Positions 1 to 20,618 of a stretch of DNA of 64,000 nt are shown here, piece by piece; the first letter of the stretch is position 1; the number at the start of each line of letters is the position of its first letter. The translations under genes were made by a program, and so were the position numbers. The stretch spans positions 64,196 through 128,195 of the forward strand of contig WGNI01000011.1 of the NCBI GenBank assembly GCA_016124655.1. Reading direction: 5' to 3'. The notes under the pieces are model-generated. The model made no database searches, was not told the DNA's origin, and saw only the letters and a program-made list of their open reading frames with translations. The stretch comes from Alphaproteobacteria bacterium (GTDB lineage: Bacteria; Pseudomonadota; Alphaproteobacteria; Caulobacterales; Aquidulcibacteraceae).

Positions 1-280
1 CGAAGCGCCGCAGAACACCCGAGTCGTGATCGTCGGCATCGCGCCGGATGAAGAGAGCTTTCTTCCGGTCCTGTCGGTGATGCGCGAGCACGTCTTCATC
101 TTTGTGATCTACTACACGCCGGAAGAGTTCGCGGAGGCGCTCGATCTTGTCCGGAGAGGGGCGATCGACTGGCGTCTTCTCGTCACCGGCAAGGTTGGGC
201 TCGACGGCGTCAGTCAAGCCTTCGCGGATCTTGCCGATCCTGAACGCCATGCGAAAATCCTGATCGATCCTTGGGCTTGA
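1..280 (+). CDS. Zinc-binding alcohol/polyol dehydrogenase, C-terminal fragment (gene begins upstream of window)
   Basis: The ORF is open from the window edge. The C-terminal sequence ...LDLVRRGAIDWRLLVTGKVGLDGVSQAFADL... is typical of the MDR/sorbitol-dehydrogenase family tail. Confidence 0.5.
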   Translation, partial: EAPQNTRVVIVGIAPDEESFLPVLSVMREHVFIFVIYYTPEEFAEALDLVRRGAIDWRLLVTGKVGLDGVSQAFADLADPERHAKILIDPWA

Positions 281-296
281 GGCCAGTGGGGCGAGG

Positions 297-1196
297 ATGA
301 TCGAGGGCGCTACTATCCGGTCCGTCAGCGTCGATGCGTTGAGCTTCACGGTGCACGAGATTGGCGCGGGCCGCCTGGTACTTTGCTTGCATGGGTTTCC
401 GGACACTGCGCGCACGTTTCGCGTGCTGCTGCCGGCGTTGTCGGCGGCGGGGTATCGCGCGGCGGCGCCCGTGATGCGTGGATACGAGCCTTCCTCCAAG
501 CCTGCCGATGGCGACTACAGCATGGCTGCGCTGTCCCAGGACGTGCTTGCGATTGCAAACGCACTGGACGATGAGCCCGCGCATCTTGTTGGCCATGACT
601 GGGGCGCAAGCATCGCGTATGCGGCGGCGTCGCGCGCGCCACACCGGTGGCTTTCCTTGACGACGCTCGCCGTGCCGCATCCGGCTGCCTTCGCGGCGAA
701 TCTTGCAGCGGACTACGGTCAGCTTCGTCGCTCTTGGTACATGTATCTGTTTCAGATGCGCGGGATGGCGGAAGCGATCGTAGGCGGCGAGGACTTCGCG
801 TTTCTGCGCGCCCTTTGGCGCGACTGGTCGCCGGACTACACGCCGGACCCCTCGGATATGGCGGCGCTCTTCGAGACCTTCTCGAAACCCGGCGTGCTCG
901 AAGCGGCGCTCGCCTATTATCGGACAGCGTTCGATCCCGCAGCGCCGCGGGCAGGGGAAAGCGCTGCGATCTGGACCGCGCCCGTTGCTGCGCCCACGCT
1001 GGGCCTGACGGGCGAAAGAGACGGCTGTATTTCGCCGGACATCTTCACGCGCTCGATGCCTCAAGCGATGTTCGCGCGCGGCGTGGACGTGCGACGTGTT
1101 CGGGACGCGGGGCATTTTCTGCATCTGGAGCGCCCTGACGAGGTGAATGCGTTGATCATCGCGTTCCTTGCGCGTCACGGAAAGCATCGAGAATAG
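297..1196 (+). CDS. Alpha/beta hydrolase, epoxide-hydrolase-like
   Basis: ATG start at 297. It carries the HGFPD oxyanion-hole motif and the GHDWG nucleophile-elbow motif. Confidence 0.7.
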   Translation: MIEGATIRSVSVDALSFTVHEIGAGRLVLCLHGFPDTARTFRVLLPALSAAGYRAAAPVMRGYEPSSKPADGDYSMAALSQDVLAIANALDDEPAHLVGHDWGASIAYAAASRAPHRWLSLTTLAVPHPAAFAANLAADYGQLRRSWYMYLFQMRGMAEAIVGGEDFAFLRALWRDWSPDYTPDPSDMAALFETFSKPGVLEAALAYYRTAFDPAAPRAGESAAIWTAPVAAPTLGLTGERDGCISPDIFTRSMPQAMFARGVDVRRVRDAGHFLHLERPDEVNALIIAFLARHGKHRE

Positions 1197-1209
1197 GAAT
1201 GGCTGTGCG

Positions 1210-1875
1210 ATGAGGATTGCTTTTGTCGCCTATGACGGCATGACGCTGCTGGATCTTGTCGGTCCGTACGAGGTGCTTACCCTGTGGCCGGACGCCGAGG
1301 CGTTCGTTGTCGCTGAGCGCGCCGGCGTGGTGACGCCAGACAGCCGGACCTTGCCGGTCGTTGCGTCGCATGCGTTCGCAGACGCGCCAGACGCAGACCT
1401 CATCGTGGTCCCGGGTGGCCCTACGCCCGAAGAAGCGCGACGACACAACGCGCTGCACGCCTGGCTCAAGGCGGCGGCTCCTTCCGCACGAGGGGTTTTC
1501 TCCGTCTGCACCGGCGCGTTTCATTTGGGAGAGGCAGGGCTTCTCGGCGGCAGGCGGGCCACCACGCATTGGGCCGCGCTTGCGGACCTCGCGCGCTTCG
1601 GCGCCACGCCGCAGGAAGCGCGCTGGGTTGAAGACGGGGTGGTTCTCACATCGGCGGGTGTTTCGGCGGGCATCGATGCCGCGTTGCATCTGACGGCGCG
1701 CCTGTATGGCGAAGACTTGGCGCGCGCGATCCAGCTGATGATCGAATACGATCCTTCGCCGCCCTTCGACGCGGGCTCTCCCGCGACGGCAGGTGCGGAG
1801 ACGATGCAGAGTTTCGCGGCCCTGCTTGGTCCGGCGATCGCGCGCCGACAGCCGCAACTGCGTGCCTCTGTTTAG
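1210..1875 (+). CDS. DJ-1/PfpI family protein (GATase1-like)
   Basis: It has the VCTGAF nucleophile elbow and a YDPSPPFDAGSP C-terminal region. The internal ATG at 1210 is preferred over the TTG at 1168, which overlaps the upstream gene. Confidence 0.65.
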   Translation: MRIAFVAYDGMTLLDLVGPYEVLTLWPDAEAFVVAERAGVVTPDSRTLPVVASHAFADAPDADLIVVPGGPTPEEARRHNALHAWLKAAAPSARGVFSVCTGAFHLGEAGLLGGRRATTHWAALADLARFGATPQEARWVEDGVVLTSAGVSAGIDAALHLTARLYGEDLARAIQLMIEYDPSPPFDAGSPATAGAETMQSFAALLGPAIARRQPQLRASV

Positions 1876-1893
1876 GAATGGCGTGCGGCCGTC

Positions 1894-2763
1894 TTATTCT
1901 GAGAGCACCGCGAAGCCCTGATCTATCGCGAGGGCGCCTGCGCCATTGCGGGCCTCGAAGCGGATGACGCCGCCGGCCTGCGCGTGGCGCACTTCGATGG
2001 TCTCGCCCGGAATGACCATGCCGACGAAGCGGCCTGAAATGCGCTTAAGCCGCGCCACATCGCTGTCTGCATAGGCCCGCAGGATCTCAAGCCCCGCCAG
2101 CGCCCACGTTGCGGTGCCGTGCAGGATGATGTCCGGCAGACCGGCTGCGAGCGCGACGGCGCGTTCGGTGTGGATCGGATTCCAGATGTCGGCGCACTCG
2201 GTATAAACGTGCGGCGCGCCTTTCGAGATCTGAATCGTCCGACGCGTTGCGTTCTCGGGCAGGGCAGACCCAGTGCCTAAAGGCGGGCTCGGCGGTTCGT
2301 CGATAACGGCGTCCGCGCCGTCCAACGCCACACCGCGATAAATCGAGCTCGACCAACTCGTGATGACCGGCTCTCCGCTGCGCGCGTCGACGGTAGTGAG
2401 CTTAAACGTGGTGAAGACGCCTGCGCGCGTGGCGCGGGCCAATACAAGACGGCCATGAGTGCGAAGCTCGTCACCCGGACGCAGGGGGCGGTGAAACTCC
2501 GAGTCCTGAATCGCGTGGACGCCGCGTATCGCTTCCTCTTGAGAAAGGCTTGCGGACATGCCTTCGCGTGAAGAGACGAGAACTGGCCATTCCAGGCTCA
2601 CGCACTGGAATGGAAGCGCGCGGAGTCCGCCGGCCTGCACGTCATCGAGAAAGGACGGTTCGGTCGCGTCGAGTCCGGCGGCGTAAGCGAGGATTTCCCG
2701 TGTCGTCAGGGTGCGCGCTGAGGATTGCAGCTCGAGGCCGACACGGCTTGCAGGAAAGGGCAT
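1894..2763 (-). CDS. MaoC-like (R)-specific enoyl-CoA hydratase/dehydratase with a double hot-dog fold
   Basis: 289 aa with ATG start. Its two-hotdog architecture is typical of hydratase-2/MaoC proteins. Confidence 0.55.
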   Translation of the reverse strand: MPFPASRVGLELQSSARTLTTREILAYAAGLDATEPSFLDDVQAGGLRALPFQCVSLEWPVLVSSREGMSASLSQEEAIRGVHAIQDSEFHRPLRPGDELRTHGRLVLARATRAGVFTTFKLTTVDARSGEPVITSWSSSIYRGVALDGADAVIDEPPSPPLGTGSALPENATRRTIQISKGAPHVYTECADIWNPIHTERAVALAAGLPDIILHGTATWALAGLEILRAYADSDVARLKRISGRFVGMVIPGETIEVRHAQAGGVIRFEARNGAGALAIDQGFAVLSE

Positions 2764-2778
2764 GGGAGTCGTTCCGGA

Positions 2779-4077
2779 TCAACTCACCGCATCGCGTGCG
2801 ATGGTTCGTGAGGCGAGGTAGAAGTGAAGGCTCGCTATGGCGAGTGCAAGCGTGGCCCCGAGGAGAGCGAAGCGCAGACTTAGCTCCTGGAACGTCGGCG
2901 CCAGCAAGTCGCTGACGAATCCCACGGTGAAAGGACCCGCGCCCATGCCTGCGAAGGCGGAAATGAACATCATTATGGCGATCGCCGTCGCGCGCAATCT
3001 TGTCTCGGCGACGGACTGCAGCGCTGCGAGCGCGACGCCTCCGCCGCTTGCAACGACGAAGCTGGCCGCGAACTTAAGGGCGAGCGCGACCCACGGGTCG
3101 GGCCAAAGGAAGACGGCGAGATAGATCGGGCAGCCGAGACCGTAGGCGAGCGCCGGCGCCCAGAGCTCCCAACGACGGTCATGCACGATAAGGCGCGCGG
3201 CAATGACGCCCCCAAGCAGAACGCCGACGATGCCGCCAAATCCCGACGAAAGACCGGACCACACGCCGATCTCTGTCAGCGTCAGCCCATGCACGCGCAT
3301 AAAGAACGCCGCGAGCCACTGCGCGATGGCGTAGGTGCCGAAGGCGCCGATCGTCAGGCCAAGAACGAGATGCACGAAGGTGGCCCGTCGCGACAGAACG
3401 CGTAGACCTTCTAGCATCGTCACAGCGGGTTCTTCTGAAGCACCAATCTGGCGATTTCCGAAGACGCGGGTCTCGCGCACGGTAAAAAGAACGATGAGTC
3501 CGAGCAGGAGGCCCGGTGCGCCGACGACGAAGAAGGCGATGCGCCAGCCGTACGCATCCGCGAGATAGCCGGTGGCCATCAGGCCGAGCGACAGTCCCGC
3601 CAGACCGCCAGCCTGGAACACGCTAATGGCGAAGGCGCGTCGCGGACCTGGAAAGTAATCGCCCAGCAAGGAATGCGACGCCGGCACGCAACCGGCCTCG
3701 CCTAGTCCGACTCCGACACGCGCCAGGAGGAGATGCGTGAAATTCGCCGCCGCTCCGCAGGCGGCGGTCATCGCGCTCCAAAGCACGATGCAGCCGGAAA
3801 GGATGCGCGTGCGCGAGCGTTTGTCCGCAAGGCGGGCGAGAGGAACGCCGAACGTTGCGTAGAGCGCCGCAAATGCAAAGCCCGACAGCAAGCCGATCTG
3901 GGTGTCGGAAAGACCGAGATCCGCCTTGATAGGCTCGACGAGAACCGCGAGCACCATGCGGTCCATGTAGTTGAAAAAGCTCACCATCGCGAGCACGCCG
4001 AGGACGTAATACTTGTACGGGCTAGCGGTCTTGGCAGGAGCCACAGCGCCCTCGCGCACCTGGTGCAACGTTGTCAA
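2779..4077 (-). CDS. MFS transporter
   Basis: 432 aa with about 12 predicted hydrophobic helices and the MFS motif GxLaDrxGrR (LARLADKRSRTR). It uses a TTG start. Confidence 0.7.
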   Translation of the reverse strand: MTTLHQVREGAVAPAKTASPYKYYVLGVLAMVSFFNYMDRMVLAVLVEPIKADLGLSDTQIGLLSGFAFAALYATFGVPLARLADKRSRTRILSGCIVLWSAMTAACGAAANFTHLLLARVGVGLGEAGCVPASHSLLGDYFPGPRRAFAISVFQAGGLAGLSLGLMATGYLADAYGWRIAFFVVGAPGLLLGLIVLFTVRETRVFGNRQIGASEEPAVTMLEGLRVLSRRATFVHLVLGLTIGAFGTYAIAQWLAAFFMRVHGLTLTEIGVWSGLSSGFGGIVGVLLGGVIAARLIVHDRRWELWAPALAYGLGCPIYLAVFLWPDPWVALALKFAASFVVASGGGVALAALQSVAETRLRATAIAIMMFISAFAGMGAGPFTVGFVSDLLAPTFQELSLRFALLGATLALAIASLHFYLASRTIARDAVS

Positions 4078-4138
4078 CCGCGCCTCCCGAACGTCTTGCG
4101 GGGGAGACTAACGGCAAAATCAGGCGCTGATCAATTGT

Positions 4139-4801
4139 TTAGTTTGCTTCTTGGGCCGAGGATTTCCTGGCACGGTCCTTTGGAGGCAATACGCCGCGAT
4201 AGATGAGTGAGAGATACGCACGGTGCCGGCGCTTCCAGAGGTCGGCTTCAAATCCCGACCGGCCGAGGATTTTGGTGACGTACGGATCGAGCAGTGACGT
4301 GCCGAGCTCCAGATAGACCATGAGAAAGGGAAGCCAGAGCCGGTCCACATCGGGGCGAAGGAGCCCCTGGGCGTCCATCCTGTCGATCGACGCGCGAGCG
4401 ATGCTGAAGAATTTCTCGAACACGCTTGCGCCCCATTCGCTTTCTTCCAGCAGCGCGCGACGAAAGTATTGCACCGTGACGGGCCAAGTTGATTGATGGC
4501 GCGCGATCCAATCATCTACCCACGCGAAGAAATCCTCCATCCGCATCTGCCCCATGGAGGGCGCCGCGGAGTCGAGCACTTCCTCGAACTGACGGATGAA
4601 TTTGGCGTCCACCGCCTCGCGAAGGCCTTCCTTCGATCCGAAATGGTGATTGATTAGGCCGACCGAGACGTCGGCTTTGGCCGCAATGTCGCGCACGGTC
4701 ACGCTGTCGAAGCCGTGTTCCGCGAAGAGCTGCATGGCTTCGTCGAGGATGCGCTCGCGTCCATTCGAGCGGTCGGGAATTGGCGTTGCGGCTTCGGTCA
4801 T
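4139..4801 (-). CDS. TetR/AcrR family transcriptional regulator
   Basis: It has an N-terminal HTH (RERILDEAMQLFAEHGFDSVTVRDIAAKADVS). The ATG at 4801 is preferred; the track ORF extends to a TTG at 4852. Confidence 0.75.
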   Translation of the reverse strand: MTEAATPIPDRSNGRERILDEAMQLFAEHGFDSVTVRDIAAKADVSVGLINHHFGSKEGLREAVDAKFIRQFEEVLDSAAPSMGQMRMEDFFAWVDDWIARHQSTWPVTVQYFRRALLEESEWGASVFEKFFSIARASIDRMDAQGLLRPDVDRLWLPFLMVYLELGTSLLDPYVTKILGRSGFEADLWKRRHRAYLSLIYRGVLPPKDRARKSSAQEAN

Positions 4802-4948
4802 CGCAGTCTCGTACTCAACGATCGTGATCAGACGCGCCCGCCGCGTCGTCAAGTGCGAGCGGAGCGGGGAACGAGCGTCAGGCTTGCACAGCAGGGGCGG
4901 ACGCGCTATCGCAGACTGAACAAACGTTCAAGTTTGGTGGAGGGATGC

Positions 4949-6151
4949 ATGCGAGAGGCGATGATCGTGTCTACGGCGCGTACCGGGATCGGCAAGGCCG
5001 TTCGGGGAAGCTTCAACGACACACACGGCATTGTTCTGGGCGGCCATGCCCTCAAGCACGCCATGGCGCGCGCCAAGGTCGAACCCGCCGAGATCGAGGA
5101 CGTGATCATCGGGGCCGGCATGCCGGAAGGCGCAACCGGCAATCTCGGACGGACATCTGCCATTTGGGCGGGATGCCCGAACACTGTTTCCGGATCCACC
5201 GTTGCGCGCTTCTGTTCTTCCGGCCTTCAGGCGATTGCCTTCGCGGCGGGGCGAGTGGTCAACGAGGGCGTGCCGGTGATGGCGGCCGGAGGGGTGGAGT
5301 CCATTTCGCTCGTGCAAATGAGCGGGCATATGAACCGCCATCGGGTGGTCGAGGAGCAGCTCTACGCACAGCAGCCGGCGCTCTGGATGAGCATGATCGA
5401 AACGGCCGAAGTGGTCGCGGAGCGCTACGGCGTCTCTCGGGAGACGCAAGACGCATACGCTCTGGAGAGTCAGCAGCGCACCGCAGCGGCGCAGGCGGCC
5501 GGCCTGTTCGACGACGAGATCGTGCCAATCACGGTCAAGTATCGTCAGATAGATAAAACCACCAAGGAAGAGACCTTGGTCGAGCACACCGTCAGGGGCG
5601 ATGAATGCAATCGCGCCCAGACAACGCTCGCGGACTTGCAGAAGCTTGAGCCCGTGCTGCGCGGAGGCCAGCGCATTCAGGAGGGCAGGTTCGTCACTGC
5701 CGGCAATTCGAGCCAGTTGTCGGATGGCGCAAGCGCATGCGTGCTGATGGAGAGAAAGGAAGTCGAACGTCGTGGATTGGCGCCGCTGGGAGTCTTTCGC
5801 GGGTTCGCCGTTGCAGGATGTGATCCGGACGAGATGGGCATTGGGCCTGTCTTCGCCGTGCCGCGCCTTCTGGAGCGACATGGCCTGAAGGTGGACGACA
5901 TCGGGCTGTGGGAGCTGAATGAGGCCTTCGCGTCGCAATGCATCTATAGCCGCGACAAGCTCGGCATCGATCCCGCGAAGTACAACGTGAACGGCGGCTC
6001 GATCTCCATTGGCCATCCCTACGGGATGACGGGTGCCCGATGCGTCGGCCATGCCCTCATCGAAGGCAAGCGGCGCAGGGCTAAATACGTGGTCGTGACC
6101 ATGTGTGTCGGCACCGGCATGGGCGCAGCGGGTCTTTTCGAAGTGGCTTGA
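4949..6151 (+). CDS. Acetyl-CoA C-acyltransferase (thiolase)
   Basis: Thiolase signatures are present (IVSTARTGIGKA..., NEAFASQ, GGSISIGHPYGMTGAR). The internal ATG at 4949 is preferred over the long upstream extension. Confidence 0.8.
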   Translation: MREAMIVSTARTGIGKAVRGSFNDTHGIVLGGHALKHAMARAKVEPAEIEDVIIGAGMPEGATGNLGRTSAIWAGCPNTVSGSTVARFCSSGLQAIAFAAGRVVNEGVPVMAAGGVESISLVQMSGHMNRHRVVEEQLYAQQPALWMSMIETAEVVAERYGVSRETQDAYALESQQRTAAAQAAGLFDDEIVPITVKYRQIDKTTKEETLVEHTVRGDECNRAQTTLADLQKLEPVLRGGQRIQEGRFVTAGNSSQLSDGASACVLMERKEVERRGLAPLGVFRGFAVAGCDPDEMGIGPVFAVPRLLERHGLKVDDIGLWELNEAFASQCIYSRDKLGIDPAKYNVNGGSISIGHPYGMTGARCVGHALIEGKRRRAKYVVVTMCVGTGMGAAGLFEVA

Positions 6152-6168
6152 GGGCGGGAGGAGGCGAC

Positions 6169-7044
6169 ATGCTTCGTCTGACAGAAGCGCAAAAGGCCTT
6201 CTACGAAAGGGAAGGGTATCTCCTCTTGCCCGGTTATTTGTCGCGCGAGTGGATCGTACGTCTCACCGAAGCGATGAAGCGATTCATCGCGGAGAGCCGT
6301 ACGCTTTCCAGCTCTTCGGCGTCGATACTTGTCGAGCCGGGCCATACTCTCGAGGCGCCGCGCCTTCGCCGCATTCCCCAGACAGTCGCCTTCGATCCGG
6401 ACTTCGAGGCGTTTGGATTGCGCGGCCCGGTCGTCGACATCGCCGAAGACGTGTTGGGCTCCGATGTCCGCTTCCATCACTCGAAGCTGAATTTCAAATG
6501 GTCAGGCGGGGGCGAAGAAATACGCTGGCATCAGGACATCCAGTTCTGGCCGCATTCGAATTACTCGCCGCTGACGATTGGCGTCTATCTGACCGATGTT
6601 GATGACGAGATGGGGCCGATGGGCGTGGTGCGCGGAAGTCATCGCGGTCCGCTCTACAGTCTCCGGGACGAAGCCGGCGCGTGGACAGGCGCGCTATCCG
6701 ACGATGAAGTGCGTGCGATCGACCCGTCGTCTGTCGCTTGGCTGAAGGGGCCGATAGGTTCAGTCACGATCCATAATTGCCGCGCCGTTCACGGCTCCAT
6801 GGCGAACCGGTCGCCGCGGACGCGGCCGCTCTTGCTGCACACATACGCTGCCGCAGACGCGATTCCGCTGACACGGATCATGGACGGCGTGGCGCACGCC
6901 AATGCGATGGTCCGCGGATCGCCCGCTACGCATGCGCGGTTCGGCGATGTTCCGTGCCCAATGCCGCCGGCATGGGAAAAGGGTCAGTACAGTTCGATCT
7001 TCGCATCGCAAAAGCGTGAGACCGCCGGTGCGATGGACTCTTGA
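6169..7044 (+). CDS. Phytanoyl-CoA dioxygenase (PhyH) family Fe(II)/2OG oxygenase
   Basis: PhyH-like motifs are present (WHQD, HxD...H). The ATG at 6169 is preferred. Confidence 0.65.
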   Translation: MLRLTEAQKAFYEREGYLLLPGYLSREWIVRLTEAMKRFIAESRTLSSSSASILVEPGHTLEAPRLRRIPQTVAFDPDFEAFGLRGPVVDIAEDVLGSDVRFHHSKLNFKWSGGGEEIRWHQDIQFWPHSNYSPLTIGVYLTDVDDEMGPMGVVRGSHRGPLYSLRDEAGAWTGALSDDEVRAIDPSSVAWLKGPIGSVTIHNCRAVHGSMANRSPRTRPLLLHTYAAADAIPLTRIMDGVAHANAMVRGSPATHARFGDVPCPMPPAWEKGQYSSIFASQKRETAGAMDS

Positions 7045-7051
7045 GGCGCCG

Positions 7052-7804
7052 CTAGTTCCGGTAGCTCGGATCGATCCGGTCTAGCTTTCTGAGCAGTGTG
7101 GGCCAGGTGAACTGGCCTGCCCGACCGTCGAACAGCGATACGCTCTGTTCGTGCACCTTCTCGGGGACTCCCTGGTTCGGGATCGAGAGATTGTCGCCGC
7201 CCGCCTGCGCCCGGATCTGCATCGTGCAGGCGCGTTCAAGAAAATACATGACGAGCCATGCGCCCGCACAACTCGGCCCGACGGCGAGCGTGCCGTGATT
7301 GCGAAGCAGCATGCAGTGCTTGTCGCCGAGGTCGGCGACGAGGCGCTCGCGCTCATCGAGATCAAGCGCAACGCCTTCGTAGTCGTGATACGCGAGGGCG
7401 CCGCGCACCATCATGGCGTGCTGCGTGATCGGCAACAGCCCCTCCGCCCGCGCCGATACGGCCGCCCCGTCATCGGTATGCAGATGCATGACGCACTGCG
7501 CGTCGTCGCGCGCCATGTGCACTGCGCTATGGATGACAAATCCTGCCGGATTTACGATCGCATTCGGATCGTCTACCGGCCGCCCTTCGAGATCGACTTT
7601 AACGAGACTCGAGGCTGTAATCTCTTCGAACATCAAACCGTAAGGGTTTAGCAGGAAGTGATGGTCGGGGCCTGGAACGCGCGCCGAGATGTGCGTGAAG
7701 ATCATGTCGTCCCAGCCTTCCAGCGCCACCAAGCGGTAGAGAGCGGCAAGATCGACCCGCACCCGGCGTTCGGCTTCGTCGAGCTCTGAGTGTCGTGCGT
7801 GCAA
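7052..7804 (-). CDS. Class II aldolase/adducin family protein
   Basis: It shows the aldolase_II N-terminal domain pattern (HLHTDDGAAVS..., RNHGTLAVG). Confidence 0.65.
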   Translation of the reverse strand: MHARHSELDEAERRVRVDLAALYRLVALEGWDDMIFTHISARVPGPDHHFLLNPYGLMFEEITASSLVKVDLEGRPVDDPNAIVNPAGFVIHSAVHMARDDAQCVMHLHTDDGAAVSARAEGLLPITQHAMMVRGALAYHDYEGVALDLDERERLVADLGDKHCMLLRNHGTLAVGPSCAGAWLVMYFLERACTMQIRAQAGGDNLSIPNQGVPEKVHEQSVSLFDGRAGQFTWPTLLRKLDRIDPSYRN

Positions 7805-7819
7805 GGCTAAGTCTCCTTC

Positions 7820-9409: not shown

Positions 9410-9659
9410 ATTTCAATGGCCTTTTCGCTGCAAGCGGCGCCGGTGTTGCCGTTGGGTCACGCGCCAGACGCCGCTGATTTAACGGCACAATAGCGGGTTG
9501 CAACAAGCTGAGCAATTGTTTAGCACGGTGGTGGTGCTGTTCCGGAGACCCCGGAATGAGCGTGTTCGCAGGTCGTCATGAGTTCGGGGCAGCCGTGTGC
9601 CCCGGCGAAAAAAGAGGCGCGGCGATCCACGCCGGCGCGAAAGACGGGGAGAAGGCGCG

Positions 9660-11744: not shown

Positions 11745-11773
11745 GGCTGCCTTACCTCCCGAAGGACAAACTG

Positions 11774-11801
11774 ACGGGGACCCCGCGTCCCCGTTTTTTT
11801 T
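11774..11801 (+). terminator. Rho-independent terminator downstream of the TonB-dependent receptor gene
   Basis: GC hairpin acggggaccccgcgtccccgt followed by a run of eight T residues. Confidence 0.7.
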
Positions 11802-11827
11802 GCATGCAGAGCAGATAGGAGAGTACG

Positions 11828-12748
11828 GTGACCATTCGCTTTGATCAACGAGTTGCGGTCGTGACCGGCGCCGGGGCGGGCCTCGGGCGTGAGCACGCCC
11901 TTGGGCTGGCTCAGCGGGGGGCAAGGGTTGTCGTAAACGACTTCGGCGGAGGGGTTGACGGTGCCGGCGGGTCAGCCGGCCCGGCTACTGAGACGGTCCG
12001 TCTCATCTTGGAAGCGGGCGGTGAAGCCTTTGCGCACGCTGCTGACGTCACCAAGCCCGATCAGGTCCAGGATATGGTTACGCAGACCATGAAGAGATGG
12101 GGTAGGGTGGATATTCTGGTCAACAATGCCGGCATTCTTCGCGACCGCACGTTTGCGAAGATGACATCAGAAGATTTCGCCGCGGTGGTCGCGGTTCATT
12201 TGCAAGGATCGGCGAATTGCAGCCTCGCGGTTTGGCCGCACATGAAGGAAGCCAATTACGGCCGGATCGTCATGACGAGCTCATCATCTGGCATCTACGG
12301 AAATTTCGGTCAGGCGAACTATGGCGCAGCCAAGATGGGCGTGGTCGGGCTCATGAACGTGCTGCACATTGAGGGCGCCAAGAACAATATTCGAGTCAAC
12401 ACGATCGCGCCTGGCGCAGCGACACGGATGACCCAGGATCTCCTGCCGCCTGGCGTGATCGAGCTCATGAGCCCGAAGACGGTGACGCCCGGTCTGCTCT
12501 TCCTTGTCAGCGAGGATGCGCCATTGCGCGTGATACTCTGCGCAACGGCGGGCGGCTTCGCCCGCACGATGATCTATGAGACCGAGGGCGTCTGGCTGGG
12601 CGAGGAAGACTGCACGCCGGAGAATGTTGCGGCGCTTTTCCCGCAGATTTCCGACCCGAATGGTCAGCACGTCTATGAAAGCGGCTCGCCTCAGGTGGCC
12701 AAGTTCGTCGGCAAGGCTGCAGCTGGAAAGGGCGTAAAGCTCGGCTGA
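11828..12748 (+). CDS. SDR family oxidoreductase, MFE-2/17beta-HSD4-like 3-hydroxyacyl-CoA dehydrogenase type
   Basis: It has the TGAGAGLG Rossmann motif and a YGAAK catalytic motif, and its N-terminus is typical of MFE-2-type dehydrogenases. GTG start with an aggagag RBS. Confidence 0.7.
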   Translation: MTIRFDQRVAVVTGAGAGLGREHALGLAQRGARVVVNDFGGGVDGAGGSAGPATETVRLILEAGGEAFAHAADVTKPDQVQDMVTQTMKRWGRVDILVNNAGILRDRTFAKMTSEDFAAVVAVHLQGSANCSLAVWPHMKEANYGRIVMTSSSSGIYGNFGQANYGAAKMGVVGLMNVLHIEGAKNNIRVNTIAPGAATRMTQDLLPPGVIELMSPKTVTPGLLFLVSEDAPLRVILCATAGGFARTMIYETEGVWLGEEDCTPENVAALFPQISDPNGQHVYESGSPQVAKFVGKAAAGKGVKLG

Positions 12749-12755
12749 TAACTGC

Positions 12756-13562
12756 TCAGTCGCCGGTGAATGTCGGCGTCCGCTTTTCGAAGAATGCGGT
12801 CACTGCTTCCTTGAAATCGCCGCTCATGCTAGCGAGCAGCCATTGGTCGCCATCCATGTGCATGATCGCGCGGTCAAGCGGCCCGGCTACCGAATTGATG
12901 CTGCGCTTGATCATCTGAACGGAGAGCGGCGGCAGCGCGGCATACTCTTCTGCCCAGGCGAGCGCTGTTGCGTGCAACTGCTCTGGGGGCACGACAGCGT
13001 CCAGAAAGCCCCATCGTTCCAGAATATCCGCCGTGAAAAGGCGGCCCGTCATGATCATCTGCTTGGCGCGTGAGGGGCCGATGAGATGGACGCAGATGGG
13101 GACGGCGTTCCACATCAGGTTGATCCCCAGCCTCACCTCTCCGTATCCGATGCGCGCGTTTGTCGCCCCGATGCGGAAGTCGCACGCGCTGGTGATGCAC
13201 GCGCCGGCGCCCGTGGCGATTCCCTGTACTGCGCAGATAGTCGGCTGGTGGATATCCTGGATGCAGCGCATCAATGTGGCGCCCAGTTCGATTGTACGCC
13301 GTCGCATGAGGAGGGTTGGCGTCTCGCCGCCCTGGAACCGGGGCTGTTTCAGGTCCGCGCCAATGGAAAAATCATTTCCTTGAGCGCAGAAGATCACGGC
13401 GCGGGTCTGCTCGCACGTCGCGAACGACCTGCAGGCCGCGTCGAGTTCTGCCATCATTTCGGTGTTCACCGCATTGCGTTCAGCGGCGCGTGTCAGCGTC
13501 ACGCGTGCGATGGCGCCATCCTTGTCGACGCGGACATGGGTGGAGTCGGACTCTGTCGTCAT
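12756..13562 (-). CDS. Enoyl-CoA hydratase/isomerase (crotonase) family protein
   Basis: It shows a crotonase fold pattern (VTLTRAAERNAVN..., CAVQGIATGAG). The internal ATG at 13562 is preferred. Confidence 0.7.
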   Translation of the reverse strand: MTTESDSTHVRVDKDGAIARVTLTRAAERNAVNTEMMAELDAACRSFATCEQTRAVIFCAQGNDFSIGADLKQPRFQGGETPTLLMRRRTIELGATLMRCIQDIHQPTICAVQGIATGAGACITSACDFRIGATNARIGYGEVRLGINLMWNAVPICVHLIGPSRAKQMIMTGRLFTADILERWGFLDAVVPPEQLHATALAWAEEYAALPPLSVQMIKRSINSVAGPLDRAIMHMDGDQWLLASMSGDFKEAVTAFFEKRTPTFTGD

Positions 13563-13679
13563 GTGGTATTCCCTTGGTCTCGGAAGCTTCGAGAGGCGAC
13601 GCAAGACAATCGCACTAAACGCTTGATCAGTCGAGGGCGTGACAATATCGTCCCTCCGTCAAGGCGAGAATGAGCGCTG

Positions 13680-14651
13680 ATGATGAAGCGTCCCTTCACC
13701 GTTGCGGAACAGTCGCAGCACTTTCTAACGAGGCGCCACGATGCGGTTCCTCAAGGACGCGTCGAAGGCCGCGCCGCATGGATGGCGCGTGATCTGCCCC
13801 GTGGACCAGCGCTCAAGCAGCCGATGTCTGACGCGCTTGTCGAGGCGTGGGAGCGACGCCTCGGAGCGGCGGGTGAATCCGCGCGCGAAGACGCCTACGA
13901 GCCGGTGATCGCTGAAGCGGTGGAGACGTGGCGGCGGGAGCTTCTCGACGGAAGAGGATTCGTTCTTCTCCGCGGCGCCCCGGTGCGCGCATGGTCGCTG
14001 AATCGCGCCAAGGCGTTCATGCAGATGCTCGGCGCCTGTTTCGGTCGCCTCGGAATGCAGAGTAGCCGGACCGACCACCTGATCGCCGAAGTGCGCAACA
14101 CGGGCGCGGCTCTACGCGACCCCTTTTCACGAAACTACATCACGGATCGCGAGTTCCGGTTCCACTGCGACGCCGCGGATCTTCTCGGCCTTCTCTGCGT
14201 CCGCAAGGCGCGCGACGGTGGTCTGAACAAGCTTGCGAGCTCCGTCACCGTCTATAACGAACTTCAACGCCGTCGTCCCGATCTTGCGAAGCGACTGTTC
14301 GCTCCGGTGTATCTCGATCTCCGAAACGAACAAGTGCCCGGGTCTGCGGCATTCGCGGAGGTGGTGCCTTGCGCATATGCCGAAGGTGCTTTGCGCACAT
14401 TCTACATTTCTGACTATTTCCGCAGCGTAGATCGCCACGGCGAGATTAAACTGCCTGCGGATTATTTCGAGCTTTTCGATCTGTACGAAGAGATCGCTGA
14501 TCACGAGGACATTTCCGTGAGGGTCGATCTCGATCCGGGCGACATCCTCCTCATCAACAATCACGTGATGCTGCATGCCCGCACCGCGTTTGAGGATGAG
14601 CCGGGGGCTGAGCGGCTCCTGCTTCGTTTTCTGGTTTCCGTCGGCGCATGA
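13680..14651 (+). CDS. TauD/TfdA family Fe(II)/2-oxoglutarate dioxygenase
   Basis: It has an HxD motif (FHCDAAD) and a distal His (NHVMLHARTAF). Confidence 0.6.
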   Translation: MMKRPFTVAEQSQHFLTRRHDAVPQGRVEGRAAWMARDLPRGPALKQPMSDALVEAWERRLGAAGESAREDAYEPVIAEAVETWRRELLDGRGFVLLRGAPVRAWSLNRAKAFMQMLGACFGRLGMQSSRTDHLIAEVRNTGAALRDPFSRNYITDREFRFHCDAADLLGLLCVRKARDGGLNKLASSVTVYNELQRRRPDLAKRLFAPVYLDLRNEQVPGSAAFAEVVPCAYAEGALRTFYISDYFRSVDRHGEIKLPADYFELFDLYEEIADHEDISVRVDLDPGDILLINNHVMLHARTAFEDEPGAERLLLRFLVSVGA

Positions 14652-16279
14652 GCACGGCGCACGCCAATCGTCCCGTCTGGGGTTTGCGGGTTGGAGAAAA
14701 GAGCATGGGCGCTTACGCGCTCCGTGTCTTCGAACCCCGACCGCAACGGCTCGCCGACATTCTGGATGAGTCGGCTAAGTGGGGCAAAAGGGAATTTCTG
14801 GTCCACGGTGCGCGGCGCGCCTCTTTCGCGGAGTTTCACGCGGCTGTCGCACGGGCGGCCGATAGACTGGCGGAGGCAGGCGTGCGCCGCGGGGACAGAG
14901 TGATGGTACTTGGCGCAAACAGCGCCGAGTGGCTTGTGGGGTTTTGGGCATTGGCGCGGATCGGCGCCGTCATTGCGCTTGGCAATGCGTGGTGGAGCGC
15001 GGAAGAGACGGCTCACGCTTTGGCCCTCGTCGAGCCTCGCCTCGTTCTCGTCGATGAAGCGCGCTGCGTGATCGTGCCTTCCGATCATCCGTCCCTCGCG
15101 ATCGAAACCCTACGCAAAGACTGGACCGAAAATGACGGCGCTGCGCCGACCACGAAGGTGACGCAAGTGCAGGACGCAGAAACCGATGAGGAGCATCCTG
15201 CGCTGTTCATCTTTACGTCCGGAACGACGAGCCGTGCGAAATCCGCAGTGCTGTCCCATCGTGCGGCGCTAGCATGCCTGCATGTGCTGTACGCAGGGCG
15301 CGGCGTTTCACCCTCGGCGTTCGGTCCCGAGGATGCGCAAACGACCATGCTGTCCTGTGCGCCCCTGTTCCATCTTTCCGGATACATGTCGCACACGCAG
15401 GCTTTGCTGAGCGGGCATCGCTTCATCTTGCTTGAAGGGCGCGCGGATCCCGAACGGATACTCGATCTCATCGAGAAGGAATGCGTCCAAACGTGGGCGA
15501 GCGTCCCGACGCTCTTGTCGCGAGTCGTGCACACGCCGTCCGCGCTATTGCGAGATCTTTCGTCGGTCACCGGCATCGCGGGCGGCGGCGCCACGGTGTC
15601 TTCGGAGCTGATGGATCGCGTGCGCCGCGTTTTTCCGAATGCGAGAATCGGGGCCAGCGCGACATACGGCCTGACGGAGGCAGGCGGATCGGTCACGCTC
15701 ATCAGCGGGGAAGAGTATTTGCGACGACCGCTGTCTTGCGGTCGCGCCTTGCCCGCGTGCGAAATTCGGATCGAAGCGCCTGATGCAGAAGGCAGGGGAG
15801 AAATTCTCGTGCGAACTCCGTCGCAGATGAGCGGCTACTGGGGTGAGACGGAGGGGCGCGCGATCGATCGCGAGGGCTGGGTACACACCGGCGATCTGGG
15901 GCGGCTCGATGAAGAAGGGTACCTGTTCATCACTGGTCGGGCGAAGGACATCGTGATCCGTGGCGGGGAGAATGTATCTGCGCCTCGCGTCGAACATTGC
16001 ATATTGCGCCACCCCGCCGTTCTCGAGGTCGCCGTCGTCGGTCTGCCGCATCCCGATCTCGGGGAGGAAGTCGCGGCCGCTGTGGTCGCCAAGAAGGGGG
16101 CTGCGCTCGATATCGAGGCGCTTGCGGCGTTTGCGTCCGAAAGCCTTGCGTATTTCGAACGTCCGACCCGCTGGTGGATCAGGGATGAGCCATTGCCGAC
16201 CAACGCAACGTCAAAGATCGTCAAGGCGCAACTTATCGCCGAGTGGCCAGACGGAAATGCGCCTGAGCGAGATGTTTAG
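14648..16279 (+). CDS. AMP-dependent acyl-CoA synthetase/ligase
   Basis: AMP-binding motifs are present (FTSGTTSRAK, YGLTE, GDLGRLDEEGYLFITGRAKD). Its ATG overlaps the TauD stop codon (ATGA). Confidence 0.8.
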   Translation: MSTAHANRPVWGLRVGEKSMGAYALRVFEPRPQRLADILDESAKWGKREFLVHGARRASFAEFHAAVARAADRLAEAGVRRGDRVMVLGANSAEWLVGFWALARIGAVIALGNAWWSAEETAHALALVEPRLVLVDEARCVIVPSDHPSLAIETLRKDWTENDGAAPTTKVTQVQDAETDEEHPALFIFTSGTTSRAKSAVLSHRAALACLHVLYAGRGVSPSAFGPEDAQTTMLSCAPLFHLSGYMSHTQALLSGHRFILLEGRADPERILDLIEKECVQTWASVPTLLSRVVHTPSALLRDLSSVTGIAGGGATVSSELMDRVRRVFPNARIGASATYGLTEAGGSVTLISGEEYLRRPLSCGRALPACEIRIEAPDAEGRGEILVRTPSQMSGYWGETEGRAIDREGWVHTGDLGRLDEEGYLFITGRAKDIVIRGGENVSAPRVEHCILRHPAVLEVAVVGLPHPDLGEEVAAAVVAKKGAALDIEALAAFASESLAYFERPTRWWIRDEPLPTNATSKIVKAQLIAEWPDGNAPERDV

Positions 16280-16369
16280 CGGTCCGCGGCCCATGACGCG
16301 CTTGCGCGGCCCACGCAGATCGCTTCGCAGCATCAAGTCCGGATGAAAGTGCGGACAACGGCAAGTGCG

Positions 16370-17971
16370 CTAGTTCAGCTCATGCTCGAAAATGGCGCGC
16401 GCGCGCGCATAGTCGGCTTTGCCGTTGGGCGCACGTGGCGCTTCTTGCGTGAACACGATCCGTTTCGGCGCCTTGTAACCTGCGAGACTCGTCTTCACGT
16501 GCGCAATCAAGGTCTGTTCCCCGACCGGCGCCGAGACGCTCGCCACGGCTGCTACGGATTGCCCGAGGCGCGGATCGGGAACAGCGAACACAAGCGCGTC
16601 GGTCACCAGTGCGTGGCTCTTGAGCGCCTGCTCGACCTCTTCCGGATAGACCTTTTCGCCGCCGGTATTGATGCAATGACTGCCGCGACCCAGCAGGACG
16701 ATCGTCCCGTCTGCATCGACCGTGGCGTGATCGCCGCCGATCATCCGGCGCACGCCATCGATCGTGACATAGGTGCGCGCGGTCCGTTCCGGATCTTTGT
16801 AATAGCCGAGCGGTAGGTCGCCGCCCTTTGCGATGAGGCCGACTTCTCCCGAACCGGGCGTGACAGGTCGAAAGTCATCGGGTCGCACGACGATGGCGTC
16901 GGCCGGTATGAATTGGGCCGTCGATGGTCGCACGTCCCTGGACGTCACAGACGCGGCGATGCTGGCCGCTTCTGTCGCTCCCAGTCCGTCAATCAGCAGC
17001 GCGTCGGGCATGAAGTCGAGCATGCCTTCCTTGACCTCCGCACTCCACATCATTCCGCTCGAGACGACGCTTGTGACCGCGCGCACATCCCATCTGCCCG
17101 GCTCCTTGCGGAGCGCATCAAGCAGCGGACGCGCAAAGGCGTCTCCCACGATAATGATGCCGGTGCAGGCGTGCCTCTCGATCGCGTCGAGCGCGGATGC
17201 GGGATTGAAAGCCGGCGACGCCGAACAGACGACAGCGCCTCCACGGGACAAGACGCTGACAGCAGCAAAGAGCCCGGTGCCGTGCATCAGCGGCGGACCG
17301 ATGTGGTAGCGGACCTGCGGTGCGCCGCGTGTGCGTTCCGACCGGATCTGCTCCTGAAGCGCCTCGACGGTCATCGGCGGCGGTTGATCGGGCGCCGCCG
17401 CGCGCGACGCCGCGAGCACGTTCCATAGCACGCCGGACGTCCACATGACGCCTTTGGGCAGTCCCGTCGTACCTCCGGTGTAGAGCAGAAACAGGTCATC
17501 CGCCGAGCGACGCAGGTCCAGCGGGGCGCCATCGGAGCGGTAGATGCTCTCGAGGGCGATGGCTTCAGGCGCCGAGCCCCGGGCGACGATTCTGACGGCG
17601 AGCGCGCTCGCTTCGTCGCGGGTCGGAATCTTGGACGCGAATTCCGCATCGAAAATGATCGCCTCTGCGTCCGAATTCTCGACAAGATAGGCGATTTCCT
17701 CACGCCCATAGCGATAATTGATATTTACCGGCGCCAGCCGCGCCTTGAAGCAGGCTGCGAAGGCGATGAGGTAGTCCGGGCCGTTGCGCATATAGAGCGC
17801 GACCTTGGCCTGATCGCTCAGACCTGCGTGGCGCAACGCACGTGCGAGTGCGTTGGATCGATGCTCGAACTCAGCCCAGCTGACGGTTTGGTCGTCGCAA
17901 ATGACGGCAGGTTGATCAGGCGCACACGCTGTTGCGACCGCGCTGAAGACGTCTCCGAAGCTGACAGTCAT
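16370..17971 (-). CDS. AMP-dependent acyl-CoA synthetase/ligase
   Basis: AMP-binding motifs are present (YTGGTTGLPKGV, GDLPLGYYKD). The ATG at 17971 is preferred because an operator-like motif lies at 18009-18024, about 40 bp upstream. The track ORF extends to 18055. Confidence 0.75.
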   Translation of the reverse strand: MTVSFGDVFSAVATACAPDQPAVICDDQTVSWAEFEHRSNALARALRHAGLSDQAKVALYMRNGPDYLIAFAACFKARLAPVNINYRYGREEIAYLVENSDAEAIIFDAEFASKIPTRDEASALAVRIVARGSAPEAIALESIYRSDGAPLDLRRSADDLFLLYTGGTTGLPKGVMWTSGVLWNVLAASRAAAPDQPPPMTVEALQEQIRSERTRGAPQVRYHIGPPLMHGTGLFAAVSVLSRGGAVVCSASPAFNPASALDAIERHACTGIIIVGDAFARPLLDALRKEPGRWDVRAVTSVVSSGMMWSAEVKEGMLDFMPDALLIDGLGATEAASIAASVTSRDVRPSTAQFIPADAIVVRPDDFRPVTPGSGEVGLIAKGGDLPLGYYKDPERTARTYVTIDGVRRMIGGDHATVDADGTIVLLGRGSHCINTGGEKVYPEEVEQALKSHALVTDALVFAVPDPRLGQSVAAVASVSAPVGEQTLIAHVKTSLAGYKAPKRIVFTQEAPRAPNGKADYARARAIFEHELN

Positions 17972-18395
17972 GACCCAAACCGCATCTACGCCGCGCAGTG
18001 ACCAGACACTAAACAAATGCGCAGTTTGTGGCAATGATATGAGCGCATATGCCATGGCCTGAGACCTGAAAACGCCTCCAAGAATGAGTAGAGACCGTGA
18101 GACGATAGCTGGATTTCAACCGCGGCTGGTGGAGAAACCGGGGTCGCGTCAAAATCCTTCAAATCTCTGGCGTTCCGCCTCACATCGGCGCCGCAGACTG
18201 GTCCTGAAACTCACTTTGCGGAGCGACTGAGCTATTGCCGGAAATCGGGGTGTCGAACCCCGGAGCTGGCCGTGCCCTTCAAGCCTCTGGCGGGGTTTCG
18301 AGACGGCAAAAGCCTAGTGGCGGAGAGTGAAGGACAAGGTCCAAACTCGGAGCCACGCGCGCAGGGTTGGTGTGGCGGCTGCTCGCAGGCGAGGA

Positions 18396-18409
18396 TGGCG
18401 GAGAGGGAG
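18396..18409. repeat. attL-like direct repeat (TGGCGGAGAGGGAG) identical to the last 14 nt of the tRNA-Ser gene at 25691-25704
   Basis: This is an exact 14-bp match to the tRNA 3' end. A second degenerate copy (tggcggagagtgaagga) lies at 18318-18334. It marks the left boundary of the lower-GC island. Confidence 0.6.
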
Positions 18410-18541
18410 TCCGACGACAGCCCTTATTTTTCAAGGGTTGCGAGGTGATGACGACTGCGTACCCACGTCGCAACCCACGTTAACTGCGCCTTCCCGTCGC
18501 CGTTTGCCAGCGCGCGCCGATGACTCGCAACTAAATGGTAA

Positions 18542-18982: not shown

Positions 18983-19030
18983 ACCCTCAAGATCGTCCCG
19001 CTTGCCAGGCAGGCATGTAATGGTCGTCGG

Positions 19031-20390: not shown

Positions 20391-20618
20391 GGCGAAGGCG
20401 ATCAGCGGTTAGAGCGAGACAGAATTTTTCACGGACACGGAGCGTGCGGCGCGCACGCCCAGCGGTGCAGGCGCATGGAGGCAGGAGCAAGCGACCAAAC
20501 ACTGGCGGGCGCGGCGTCTTATAACCTTTCGGGGAGGTGTATTACGGCCGGTCTGAAATGTGCTGCGGGCGCGCGCTTCCAGCGCCGCAAGCACATAGGG
20601 GGTATGGGGGTTGAGACT

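Follow-up and report, generated by a model that had tools for sequence, protein, structure and literature searches.

The DNA analysed here, further called the window, is a 64,000-nt stretch of contig WGNI01000011.1 (assembly GCA_016124655.1, positions 64,196 to 128,195) from an uncultured alphaproteobacterium of the Caulobacterales. Its left-hand part carries most of a cluster of about 18 genes spanning about 20 kb, which is real and conserved and appears to be under common regulation. An earlier note had read positions 297-18055 as a peroxisome-like alpha- and beta-oxidation toolkit for a methyl-branched or isoprenoid lipid. TetR-controlled, CoA-dependent catabolic clusters are a familiar kind, of which this one is an uncharacterised variant with several unusual traits: it lacks an acyl-CoA dehydrogenase (ACAD), holds two Fe(II)/2-oxoglutarate (Fe/2OG) oxygenases and two altered 'hydratases', and includes an adducin-type aldolase-fold protein.

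Gene content and boundaries

The gene map was built from a listing of open reading frames (ORFs) and a filter on the GC content at third codon positions (GC3), followed by Pfam and NCBIfam scans. The following features were located (position, strand, description):

1-280, +: Zn-dependent medium-chain alcohol dehydrogenase (Zn-ADH), 3' end only, gene start upstream of the window (Pfam)
297-1196, +: alpha/beta-hydrolase of the epoxide-hydrolase/dehalogenase class (Abhydrolase_1, 1.4e-25)
1210-1875, +: DJ-1/PfpI family protein, 221 amino acids (aa) in contig L001 (PF01965, 4.4e-24)
1894-2763, -: MaoC-like double-hotdog protein with hydratase-2 fold (MaoC_dehydratas, 1.4e-17, and FAS1_DH_region)
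2779-4077, -: major facilitator superfamily (MFS) transporter (MFS_1, 1e-45)
4128-4141, unstranded: operator copy O1, TGATCAATTGTTTA (exact motif match)
4139-4801, -: TetR-family repressor, 220 aa in L001 (TetR_N, PF00440, 2.2e-19)
4917-4930, unstranded: operator copy O2, TGAACAAACGTTCA (exact motif match)
4949-6151, +: 3-ketoacyl-CoA thiolase (Thiolase_N and Thiolase_C)
6169-7044, +: PhyH-superfamily Fe/2OG dioxygenase (PF05721, 1.8e-25)
7052-7804, -: class II aldolase/adducin-fold metal protein (Aldolase_II, 2.1e-47)
7820-9409, -: acyl-CoA synthetase ACS1 (AMP-binding, 3.8e-78)
9509-9522, unstranded: operator copy O3, TGAGCAATTGTTTA (exact motif match)
9660-11744, +: TonB-dependent outer-membrane receptor, TBDR (plug, 1.1e-17; barrel, 7e-32)
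11773-11795, +: intrinsic terminator 3' of the TBDR gene (9-pair stem with 6 G-C pairs, then a T8 run)
11828-12748, +: short-chain dehydrogenase/reductase (SDR), (3R)-hydroxyacyl-CoA dehydrogenase of the MFE-2 type (adh_short, 8.6e-48)
12756-13562, -: crotonase-fold enzyme (ECH_1, 2.8e-42)
13616-13629, unstranded: operator copy O4, TGATCAAGCGTTTA on the minus strand (exact motif match)
13680-14651, +: TauD/TfdA-family Fe/2OG dioxygenase (PF02668, 4.3e-29)
14648-16279, +: acyl-CoA synthetase ACS2, CasG-like (AMP-binding, 3.3e-70)
16370-18055, -: acyl-CoA synthetase ACS3, FadD19/PRK07798 family (PRK07798, 563 bits against a cutoff of 543)

Based on the ORF listing and Pfam, the genes fill positions 1-18055 without gaps and no coding space is left over, and none of the opposite-strand ORFs that were checked gave a Pfam match. 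The interval comprises seven transcription units on both strands. All families named in the earlier note were recovered by the Pfam profile search where it had placed them, although its gene list had missed both the TetR gene (4139-4801) and the DJ-1/PfpI gene (1210-1875).

Logan contig L001 overlaps the window and reaches 2.1 kb further upstream, where the order is Metal_hydrol (PF10118), Cupin_7, Zn-ADH and hydrolase, indicating that the cluster starts outside the window. The best NCBIfam models for the Zn-ADH are of the threonine, inosose and idonate dehydrogenase types, all under cutoff. At the right-hand side the cluster ends with ACS3, next to which lies a 7.3-kb integrative element in a tRNA-Ser gene. 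Megablast of the whole interval against plasmids returned no match.

Conservation in related loci

Relatives were retrieved by scanning species-representative genomes with the PhyH alignment, keeping the best 80 loci, and synteny was checked by tblastn with all window proteins. The gene set is syntenic in at least ten other loci (L004, L005, L007, L008, L010, L011, L012, L084, L085 and L087), the first seven of which are Phenylobacterium and Caulobacter metagenome-assembled genomes (MAGs). Loci with a PhyH identity of at least 61% hold the same gene set at 45-75% identity, in rearranged order. Common to the relatives are the genes for TetR, thiolase, PhyH, class II aldolase, ACS1, TBDR, crotonase, TauD, MFS, Metal_hydrol, Cupin_7, Zn-ADH and the hydrolase. 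The MaoC, SDR, ACS3 and DJ-1 genes recur in subsets of the relatives; in L085 a DJ-1 gene borders the cluster.

Phenylobacterium-type clusters carry a double family-III CoA-transferase of 680-690 aa 3' of TauD (687 aa; L007 7062-9125, L087 14566-16611), in the position that is taken by the ligase ACS2 in the window and in L084. The alternation of a ligase and a CoA-transferase at this position suggests CoA activation at that step, and the swap looks like a non-orthologous replacement of the CoA-activating enzyme. The CoA_transf_3 proteins of the relatives are nearest to CaiB-type transferases rather than racemases, and a CoA-transferase among them is most like succinate-glutarate CoA-transferase.

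Several relatives carry accessory genes. Both L085 and L008 add Ltp2-like, DUF35 and 3-beta-HSD/epimerase-like genes, and L085 also has two-subunit ACADs resembling PimCD and IpdE2. In L002 the neighbours of the core genes are a KstD-like/ChcC-like flavoenzyme (543 bits for KstD, cutoff 789), a protein with a DMFA2_C domain (PF20254) and two Rieske proteins of the KshA_C type.

A shared operator and its predicted repressor

The palindrome TGAnCAAnnGTTnA occurs in four exact copies in the window (4128, 4917, 9509 and 13616), with 0.03 expected, and none of 100 shuffled sequences contained four or more. All four are located within promoter regions of the cluster, each of its four promoter-bearing intergenic regions having one. 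O1 shares bases with the TetR stop codon and is located 51 nt upstream of the MFS start, while O2, O3 and O4 lie in the divergent TetR/thiolase, ACS1/TBDR and crotonase/TauD promoter regions, respectively. The extended consensus, gACTGAnCAAnnGTTyAGT, is an 18-bp palindrome. Allowing one mismatch yields one additional site in the window, outside the cluster: TGGGCAAGCGTTTA at 40031-40044, between a DUF72 and a DUF4256 gene, most likely a chance match. A scan for sigma-70 promoters gave chance-level matches only.

The operator is kept at equivalent promoters of at least nine related loci, among them Phenylobacterium and Caulobacter MAGs. Counterparts of O2 lie between thiolase and TetR in L004, L005, L007, L012 and L084, those of O3 in L004, L005, L007, L008, L010 and L084, and that of O4 in L084 at 8296. 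Over the relatives, operators were found at thiolase/TetR, ACS1/TBDR, crotonase/PhyH or crotonase/TauD, and the divergent MFS/Metal_hydrol pair. In L085 an operator heads an operon of SDR, DUF35, Ltp2-like, hydrolase, ACS, two ACAD, FAD enzyme and class II aldolase genes. Loci without the cluster, together about 1.2 Mb, gave two exact matches, which is chance level.

Since one of the operators is found in the TetR gene's own promoter, the cluster TetR is the predicted binder of the palindrome and likely the cluster regulator. Its orthologues in related clusters share 51-61% identity. The arrangement resembles the regulons of KstR, KstR2, PsrA and FadR in having an in-cluster TetR gene and a palindrome with GAAC/GTTC-like half-sites in its own and other promoters. 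It differs in that the NCBIfam scores of the protein for KstR, PsrA and FadR are far under cutoff and confined to the DNA-binding domain (34 bits against 280 for KstR). Also, the spacing of the operator differs from what we take to be the KstR motif. The earlier note had named a lack of co-regulation as evidence against its pathway; the shared predicted operator at the cluster promoters is computational support for such co-regulation, and the cluster is very probably co-regulated.

Beta-oxidation enzymes

The view that this is a D-specific, peroxisome-type beta-oxidation set rather than a FadAB-type one agrees well with the enzymes found. Judged by its closest solved relatives, the SDR is unambiguously of the MFE-2 type: it matches the Candida (3R)-hydroxyacyl-CoA dehydrogenase (2et6, 3e-121), human HSD17B4 (1e-71) and rat and fly MFE-2 (about 1e-70) in the PDB, with intact TGxxxGxG and YxxxK cofactor and catalytic motifs. 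Orthologues are present in L008, L009 and L087. The best PDB match of the thiolase is 8gqg, a bacterial protein named only 'Thiolase' (4e-126), followed by KAT2 (2e-90) and human ACAA1 (1e-81), these two peroxisomal enzymes being its nearest functionally described solved relatives. It scores 572 bits for NCBIfam PRK07108, the cutoff being 615, and is a degradative thiolase of the ACAA1/KAT2 type rather than the SCPx type.

Both hydratase-like proteins deviate in their active sites. The best PDB match of the MaoC protein is the hydratase-2 of human MFE-2 (1s9c, 4e-13). In the HMMER alignment, Ile193 takes the place of the catalytic Asp of G-D-W-N-P-L-H and does not vary in five orthologues; next to it, Asp192 is replaced by Arg in L002. 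The canonical hydratase-2 motif G-D-x-N-P-[LIV]-H therefore appears to be absent from the MaoC protein, and another residue may serve in its place. In the crotonase a conserved Cys takes the position of rat E144, while the equivalent of E164 is kept, giving one of the two hydratase glutamates in six orthologues; these positions were fixed with what we take to be the rat hydratase sequence. Crotonases with a single acidic residue are usually isomerases or other non-hydratase members. The best NCBIfam models of the crotonase are all under cutoff, including the second-best, EchA19 (160 bits against 400).

No acyl-CoA dehydrogenase or oxidase domain was detected by Pfam in 1-18055, and a tblastn search with two ACAD queries was negative for 10 of 11 orthologous loci. 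Pfam likewise showed no SCP2, Thiolase_C_1 or CoA_transf_3 domain in the interval, which is thus without an SCPx/SCP2 module or a 2-methylacyl-CoA racemase. Compared with peroxisomal beta-oxidation, the likeness lies in the MFE-2-type SDR, in the thiolase and in the double-hotdog protein nearest to human hydratase-2. Unlike in peroxisomes, the activities reside on separate polypeptides, the acyl-CoA oxidase/dehydrogenase and the SCP2/SCPx module are missing, the catalytic Asp position of hydratase-2 is an Ile, and the enzymes sit together with a TBDR, an MFS transporter, a TetR and two Fe/2OG oxygenases.

The PhyH protein and alpha-oxidation

The PhyH protein is 100% identical to protein P0001 of 291 aa, whereas the 313-aa ORF form has no exact match, which places the true start at 6169. 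The H121-x-D123 pair and the distal His of the triad are invariant in an alignment of 17 sequences. In the PDB the protein matches the leucine hydroxylase 5nch and the ectoine hydroxylases 4mhr and 3emr at about 1e-16 to 1e-13, and human phytanoyl-CoA hydroxylase PAHX (2a1x) and PHYHD1 at E = 0.064 (15.7 bits) and E = 0.015. On the basis of these matches, it is a member of an EctD/leucine-hydroxylase-like branch and not a PAHX orthologue.

Peroxisomal alpha-oxidation relies on PAHX, HACL1 and an aldehyde dehydrogenase. The cluster is similar to it in placing a PhyH dioxygenase with an intact HxD...H triad beside CoA-metabolising enzymes. It differs in the lack of a significant PAHX match and of the partner enzymes: neither a thiamine diphosphate (ThDP)-dependent 2-hydroxyacyl-CoA lyase nor an aldehyde dehydrogenase was found by Pfam in 1-18055, where all coding space is assigned to other genes. 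Membership of the Pfam family 'PhyH' therefore does not bring with it the reaction that the earlier note had derived from it, and the phytanoyl-CoA-type alpha-oxidation, for which SCPx/SCP2 and a racemase are missing as well, finds no support in the gene content.

Outside the Caulobacterales cluster, the PhyH subfamily (48-60% identity, many phyla) repeatedly adjoins a luciferase-like monooxygenase, as in L086 (7641-10894), L050 (7376-10849) and L018, L025 and L026 (about 9100-10850); L086 and L050 also hold a second, more divergent PhyH gene. This recurrent adjacency suggests a separate, widespread enzyme function. A tblastn search of plasmids with PhyH gave homologues of at most 46% identity only (Azospirillum, Indioceanicola, Bradyrhizobium), with uninformative annotation.

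Ligases, transport and other enzymes

The AMP-binding signature is present in all three ligases. ACS1, with an intact P-loop signature, is conserved in all orthologous clusters (51-59% identity). The start codon of ACS2 overlaps the TauD stop codon, and its best NCBIfam model is the steroid-24-oyl-CoA synthetase (cholate ligase) CasG, at 428 bits against a cutoff of 750. ACS3, which probably starts near 17971, scores above the cutoff of the PRK07798 subfamily and has orthologues of 63% identity beside the TBDR in L008 and L010. PRK07798 is the FadD18/FadD19 domain (PMC11201411).

The TBDR starts at the ATG at 9660 with a signal-peptide-like N-terminus (MNNRFSMLT...AFA/Q), has both a plug and a TonB_dep_Rec_b-barrel domain, and has orthologues of 39-46% identity. 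None of the curated substrate-specific models is reached. NCBIfam places the MFS protein nearest to the anion:cation symporter family TIGR00893, matched over the full length, and to the aromatic acid/H+ symporter family TIGR00895, while efflux families score lower and match the N-terminal half only. As its nearest families are organic-anion symporters and not efflux pumps, import is likelier than export, and the protein is probably an organic-anion/H+ importer, in place of the exporter proposed before.

In the TauD protein, H162-C-D together with a distal His makes up an HCD...H triad. The protein has just two PDB relatives, FrbJ (9e-27) and the unnamed hydroxylase 7n7v, and its C-terminus is weakly CsiD-like. 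With a PRK07044 score of 384 bits (cutoff 207), the class II aldolase-fold protein falls in this adducin-like subfamily, and it retains the HxH...NHG metal ligands. In the PDB it matches 3ocr, of unknown function (3e-80), adducin (1e-52), and NovR and TqaM (about 1e-23), distant relatives which are oxygen-dependent decarboxylases. Literature searches on PF10118, PRK07044 and 7N7V yielded nothing useful. The hydrolase has an HGFP oxyanion motif at residue 32 and GHDWG, with the Asp nucleophile, at residue 99; 'epoxide-hydrolase-like' is thus a fair label, although the same motifs occur in dehalogenases, and a weak full-length match to haloalkane dehalogenase was obtained. The DJ-1/PfpI protein has the nucleophile-elbow Cys.

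Proposed pathway and alternative explanations

We give about an even chance to the cluster being a catabolic regulon that imports a bulky organic acid and degrades it as CoA esters, the likeliest class being an alicyclic or isoprenoid-derived carboxylic acid. In this proposal TetR would repress through the palindrome at the four promoter regions until released by the substrate or its CoA ester. The TBDR would carry the bulky, poorly soluble acid over the outer membrane and the anion-symporter-type MFS protein would carry it over the inner membrane. The three acyl-CoA synthetases would convert the parent acid, and acids arising later in the pathway, to CoA thioesters. The PhyH-fold and TauD-fold dioxygenases would oxygenate unactivated carbons, probably supplying or unblocking the hydroxyl that would otherwise be due to the missing ACAD and the non-canonical hydratases. 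In the presumed order of steps, the MFE-2-type (3R)-hydroxyacyl-CoA dehydrogenase and the peroxisomal-type thiolase would then shorten the chain, and the hydrolase, class-II-aldolase-fold enzyme, single-Glu crotonase, MaoC-like protein, Zn-ADH, cupin and Metal_hydrol would treat substituents. The likeliest substrate would be a steroid- or terpenoid-like carboxylic acid bearing an alkanoate side chain. It is the steroid- and alicyclic-type accessory genes in the related clusters that make a bulky alicyclic or isoprenoid acid the best guess.

A number of observations weigh against this proposal. The steroid and alicyclic links come from accessory genes of a few relatives only, with scores below curated cutoffs; the statement in the earlier note that the actual substrate cannot be read from the sequence still holds. 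No steroid-ring or ring-cleavage genes are present in the 64-kb window, in which a mobile element and housekeeping genes follow to the right. An ACAA1-like (non-SCPx) thiolase and the lack of a racemase count against a 2-methyl-branched chain. Strong conservation of the PhyH subfamily extends over many phyla, in which homologues below about 60% identity have unrelated neighbours, often including a luciferase-like monooxygenase, so that the PhyH substrate may be a common small metabolite and not the main substrate of the cluster. The SDR and ACS3 genes have no operator of their own, and the terminator at 11773-11795, the top match of the terminator scan, is a strong one between the TBDR and SDR genes. 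Finally, a description of the cluster was not found in the literature and none of its members has been characterised.

Among the closest known systems are those for steroid side-chain catabolism, comprising FadD19, CasG, ChsE, EchA19, Hsd4A/B, FadA5 and Ltp2-ChsH in Mycobacterium/Rhodococcus and StdA/Scd/Shy/Sal in Pseudomonas. It is unlikely that the cluster is specifically the Caulobacterales counterpart of a bile-acid or sterol side-chain cluster (FadD19/CasG, EchA19, Hsd4A/Hsd4B, FadA5), with TBDR and MFS uptake as in Sphingobium sp. Chol11. The likeness extends over the FadD19-family ligase ACS3, which is above the family cutoff, the CasG-like ACS2, the crotonase with EchA19 as second-best model (160 bits against 400), the MFE-2-type dehydrogenase, the MaoC-fold protein and the thiolase; Hsd4A is itself MFE-2-like. 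Under the same operator, relatives add Ltp2-like and DUF35 genes (L085 and L008) and heteromeric, two-subunit ACADs (L085), and in L002 the core genes adjoin the KstD-like enzyme and the KshA_C Rieske proteins. Yet the CasG, EchA19, KstR and KstD scores are well under their equivalog cutoffs, the window has no ACAD, no Ltp2/Sal aldol-lyase and no nucleus-degradation genes (KshA, KstD, HsaC), there are no cultured steroid degraders among the best 80 PhyH loci, and two Fe/2OG oxygenases and a class II aldolase-fold protein of the adducin type are extra to the cluster. In Sphingobium sp. Chol11, the bile-salt side-chain cluster 2 has a CoA ligase and hotdog proteins alongside a TBDR and an MFS transporter; ACADs, a Rieske monooxygenase and amidases are present, and a thiolase and the canonical side-chain enzymes are not (bioRxiv 10.1101/2021.05.19.444901). 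The present cluster, also alphaproteobacterial and also without the canonical side-chain enzymes, pairs the same types of transporter with a CoA ligase and hotdog proteins; in contrast, a thiolase and two Fe/2OG oxygenases occur in the window, which has no ACAD, Rieske protein or amidase, so that the contents are not homologous. Elements of both are combined only in the related locus L002.

Oxygenated or bifunctional aliphatic acids, such as hydroxy- and epoxy-fatty acids (cutin and suberin monomers), (R)-3-hydroxyalkanoates or long dicarboxylic acids, are an unlikely but still reasonable alternative substrate class. Such compounds would enter beta-oxidation pre-hydroxylated and need activation at two ends. 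An ACAD would be unnecessary for a substrate that is already 3-hydroxylated or otherwise hydroxylated, and an (R)-specific dehydrogenase, an epoxide-hydrolase-class hydrolase and a secondary-alcohol-type Zn-ADH are at hand together with several CoA-activating enzymes, to which relatives add the succinate-glutarate-type CoA-transferase and PimCD-like ACADs. The weak CsiD-like C-terminus of the TauD protein points in the same direction. All these supporting matches are, however, far under family cutoffs, a TBDR is unusual for simple fatty acids, and there would be no clear role for two dioxygenases or the class-II-aldolase-fold protein.

Very unlikely, in our estimate, is an oxygenase-driven shortening of blocked acyl chains that proceeds with neither an ACAD nor a ThDP lyase. 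Here the conserved, adjacent pair of PhyH and the class-II-aldolase-fold 3-His metal protein would form a new alpha-oxidation module, in which PhyH would hydroxylate and the aldolase-fold protein, by analogy with its distant relatives NovR and CloR, might carry out an O2-dependent oxidative decarboxylation of the alpha-hydroxy acid, while the TauD-fold enzyme would make a 3-hydroxyacyl intermediate directly for the (3R)-specific dehydrogenase. Such a scheme would account for the loss of canonical catalytic residues in both 'hydratases'. Phytanic or pristanic acid degradation by a bacterial copy of peroxisomal alpha- and beta-oxidation, with PhyH 2-hydroxylating a 3-methyl-branched acyl-CoA, is highly improbable. 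Pfam membership of PhyH, the MFE-2-type dehydrogenase, the hydratase-2-fold protein, the peroxisomal-type thiolase and the several ligases would fit it, and the carrier MAGs are, by their record titles only, apparently from freshwater, where chlorophyll-derived phytol is plentiful. Against this stand the PAHX match of E = 0.064, compared with about 1e-16 for ectoine/leucine hydroxylases, an interval with no ThDP 2-hydroxyacyl-CoA lyase, aldehyde dehydrogenase, SCPx-type thiolase, SCP2 domain or racemase and no unassigned coding space to hold them, and the many unrelated contexts of close PhyH homologues.

That the genes are accidental neighbours of unrelated function, forming no single pathway, is largely refuted and hardly credible. 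The seven transcription units on both strands, the absence of an operator at SDR and ACS3 and the variable gene order and accessory content among relatives would be expected in that case, but the four exact operators of the 64-kb window are confined to the cluster (0.03 expected), they are kept at equivalent promoters of at least nine related loci, and the same gene set recurs despite rearrangement. Two further candidates were rejected. For a carnitine/gamma-butyrobetaine pathway (BBOX-like TauD, CaiB-like transferase, CaiC-like ligase, CaiD-like crotonase), only weak C-terminal or fold-level matches exist, and a TBDR is unexpected for such small solutes. A biosynthetic, siderophore-like cluster was discarded because carrier-protein, condensation and NIS domains are lacking and beta-oxidation enzymes dominate.

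Right-hand neighbourhood

The 7.3-kb integrative element next to ACS3 is inserted in tRNA-Ser(CGA) and spans 18398-25780, with an integrase (24258-25502, -) beside the tRNA (25691-25780, -) and, displaced to 18398-18411, a 14-nt repeat of the tRNA 3' end, TGGCGGAGAGGGAG. It contains a DUF3854/AAA_25 primase-helicase-like gene (20735-22738, -), just downstream of which five iteron-like direct repeats of about 20 nt (TTTTTCCCCGGTTTTGG...) at 20622-20714 may be a replication origin. An island that includes the catabolic cluster was considered and rejected: a full tRNA-length att repeat was sought and only the 14-nt repeat at 18398 was found. As this repeat bounds the 7.3-kb element, the cluster lies outside it. 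Near 18321 lies a second, shorter remnant, TGGCGGAGAG, which suggests that an integration had taken place before. The catabolic cluster and the mobile region (1-29000) have a GC3 of 0.73-0.77, as against 0.79-0.90 in most genes, and nearly all longer ones, of 29000-64000; the lower values on the left suggest that the cluster may sit in an older tRNA-Ser-associated variable region.

Beyond the element, an MmeI-family type IIL restriction-modification gene (25847-29358) is split into two ORFs with a 28-nt overlap, one with the N-terminal, helicase-spacer and methyltransferase domains (26839-29358, -) and one with the target-recognition domain (25847-26866, -); the split could mean that the gene is frameshifted, that it is a pseudogene or that the enzyme consists of two parts. 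ARAGORN called an undetermined tRNA with a 2-base anticodon (30985-31058) abutting tRNA-Ser(GCT) (31058-31133), probably a false call or a degraded copy. Small genes with redox and detoxification functions are loosely grouped at 32612-38990, outside the cluster: an af470-like monooxygenase, a second DJ-1/PfpI protein, a SIS-CBS protein, a glutathione S-transferase (GST), a 2OG-FeII_Oxy_5 protein, a second TetR and a soluble glucose/sorbosone dehydrogenase. Housekeeping genes beyond the restriction-modification locus include rpoD, dnaG, argG, ahcY and kup.

Implications

If the proposed pathway is true, freshwater Caulobacterales carry a widespread, uncharacterised route for bulky lipid-like acids of the steroid, terpenoid or other alicyclic type, which make up a poorly understood share of carbon turnover in dissolved organic matter. 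The substrate range of the three ligases would reveal the cluster substrate, and the predicted repressor with its operator could become a biosensor for the inducer. The two Fe/2OG oxygenases and the adducin-type class II aldolase-fold protein are handles without an assigned reaction. Moreover, the cluster is a case of a bacterial MFE-2-type dehydrogenase and an ACAA1-like thiolase occurring together in one apparent regulon, which bears on the proposed alphaproteobacterial ancestry of peroxisomal enzymes.

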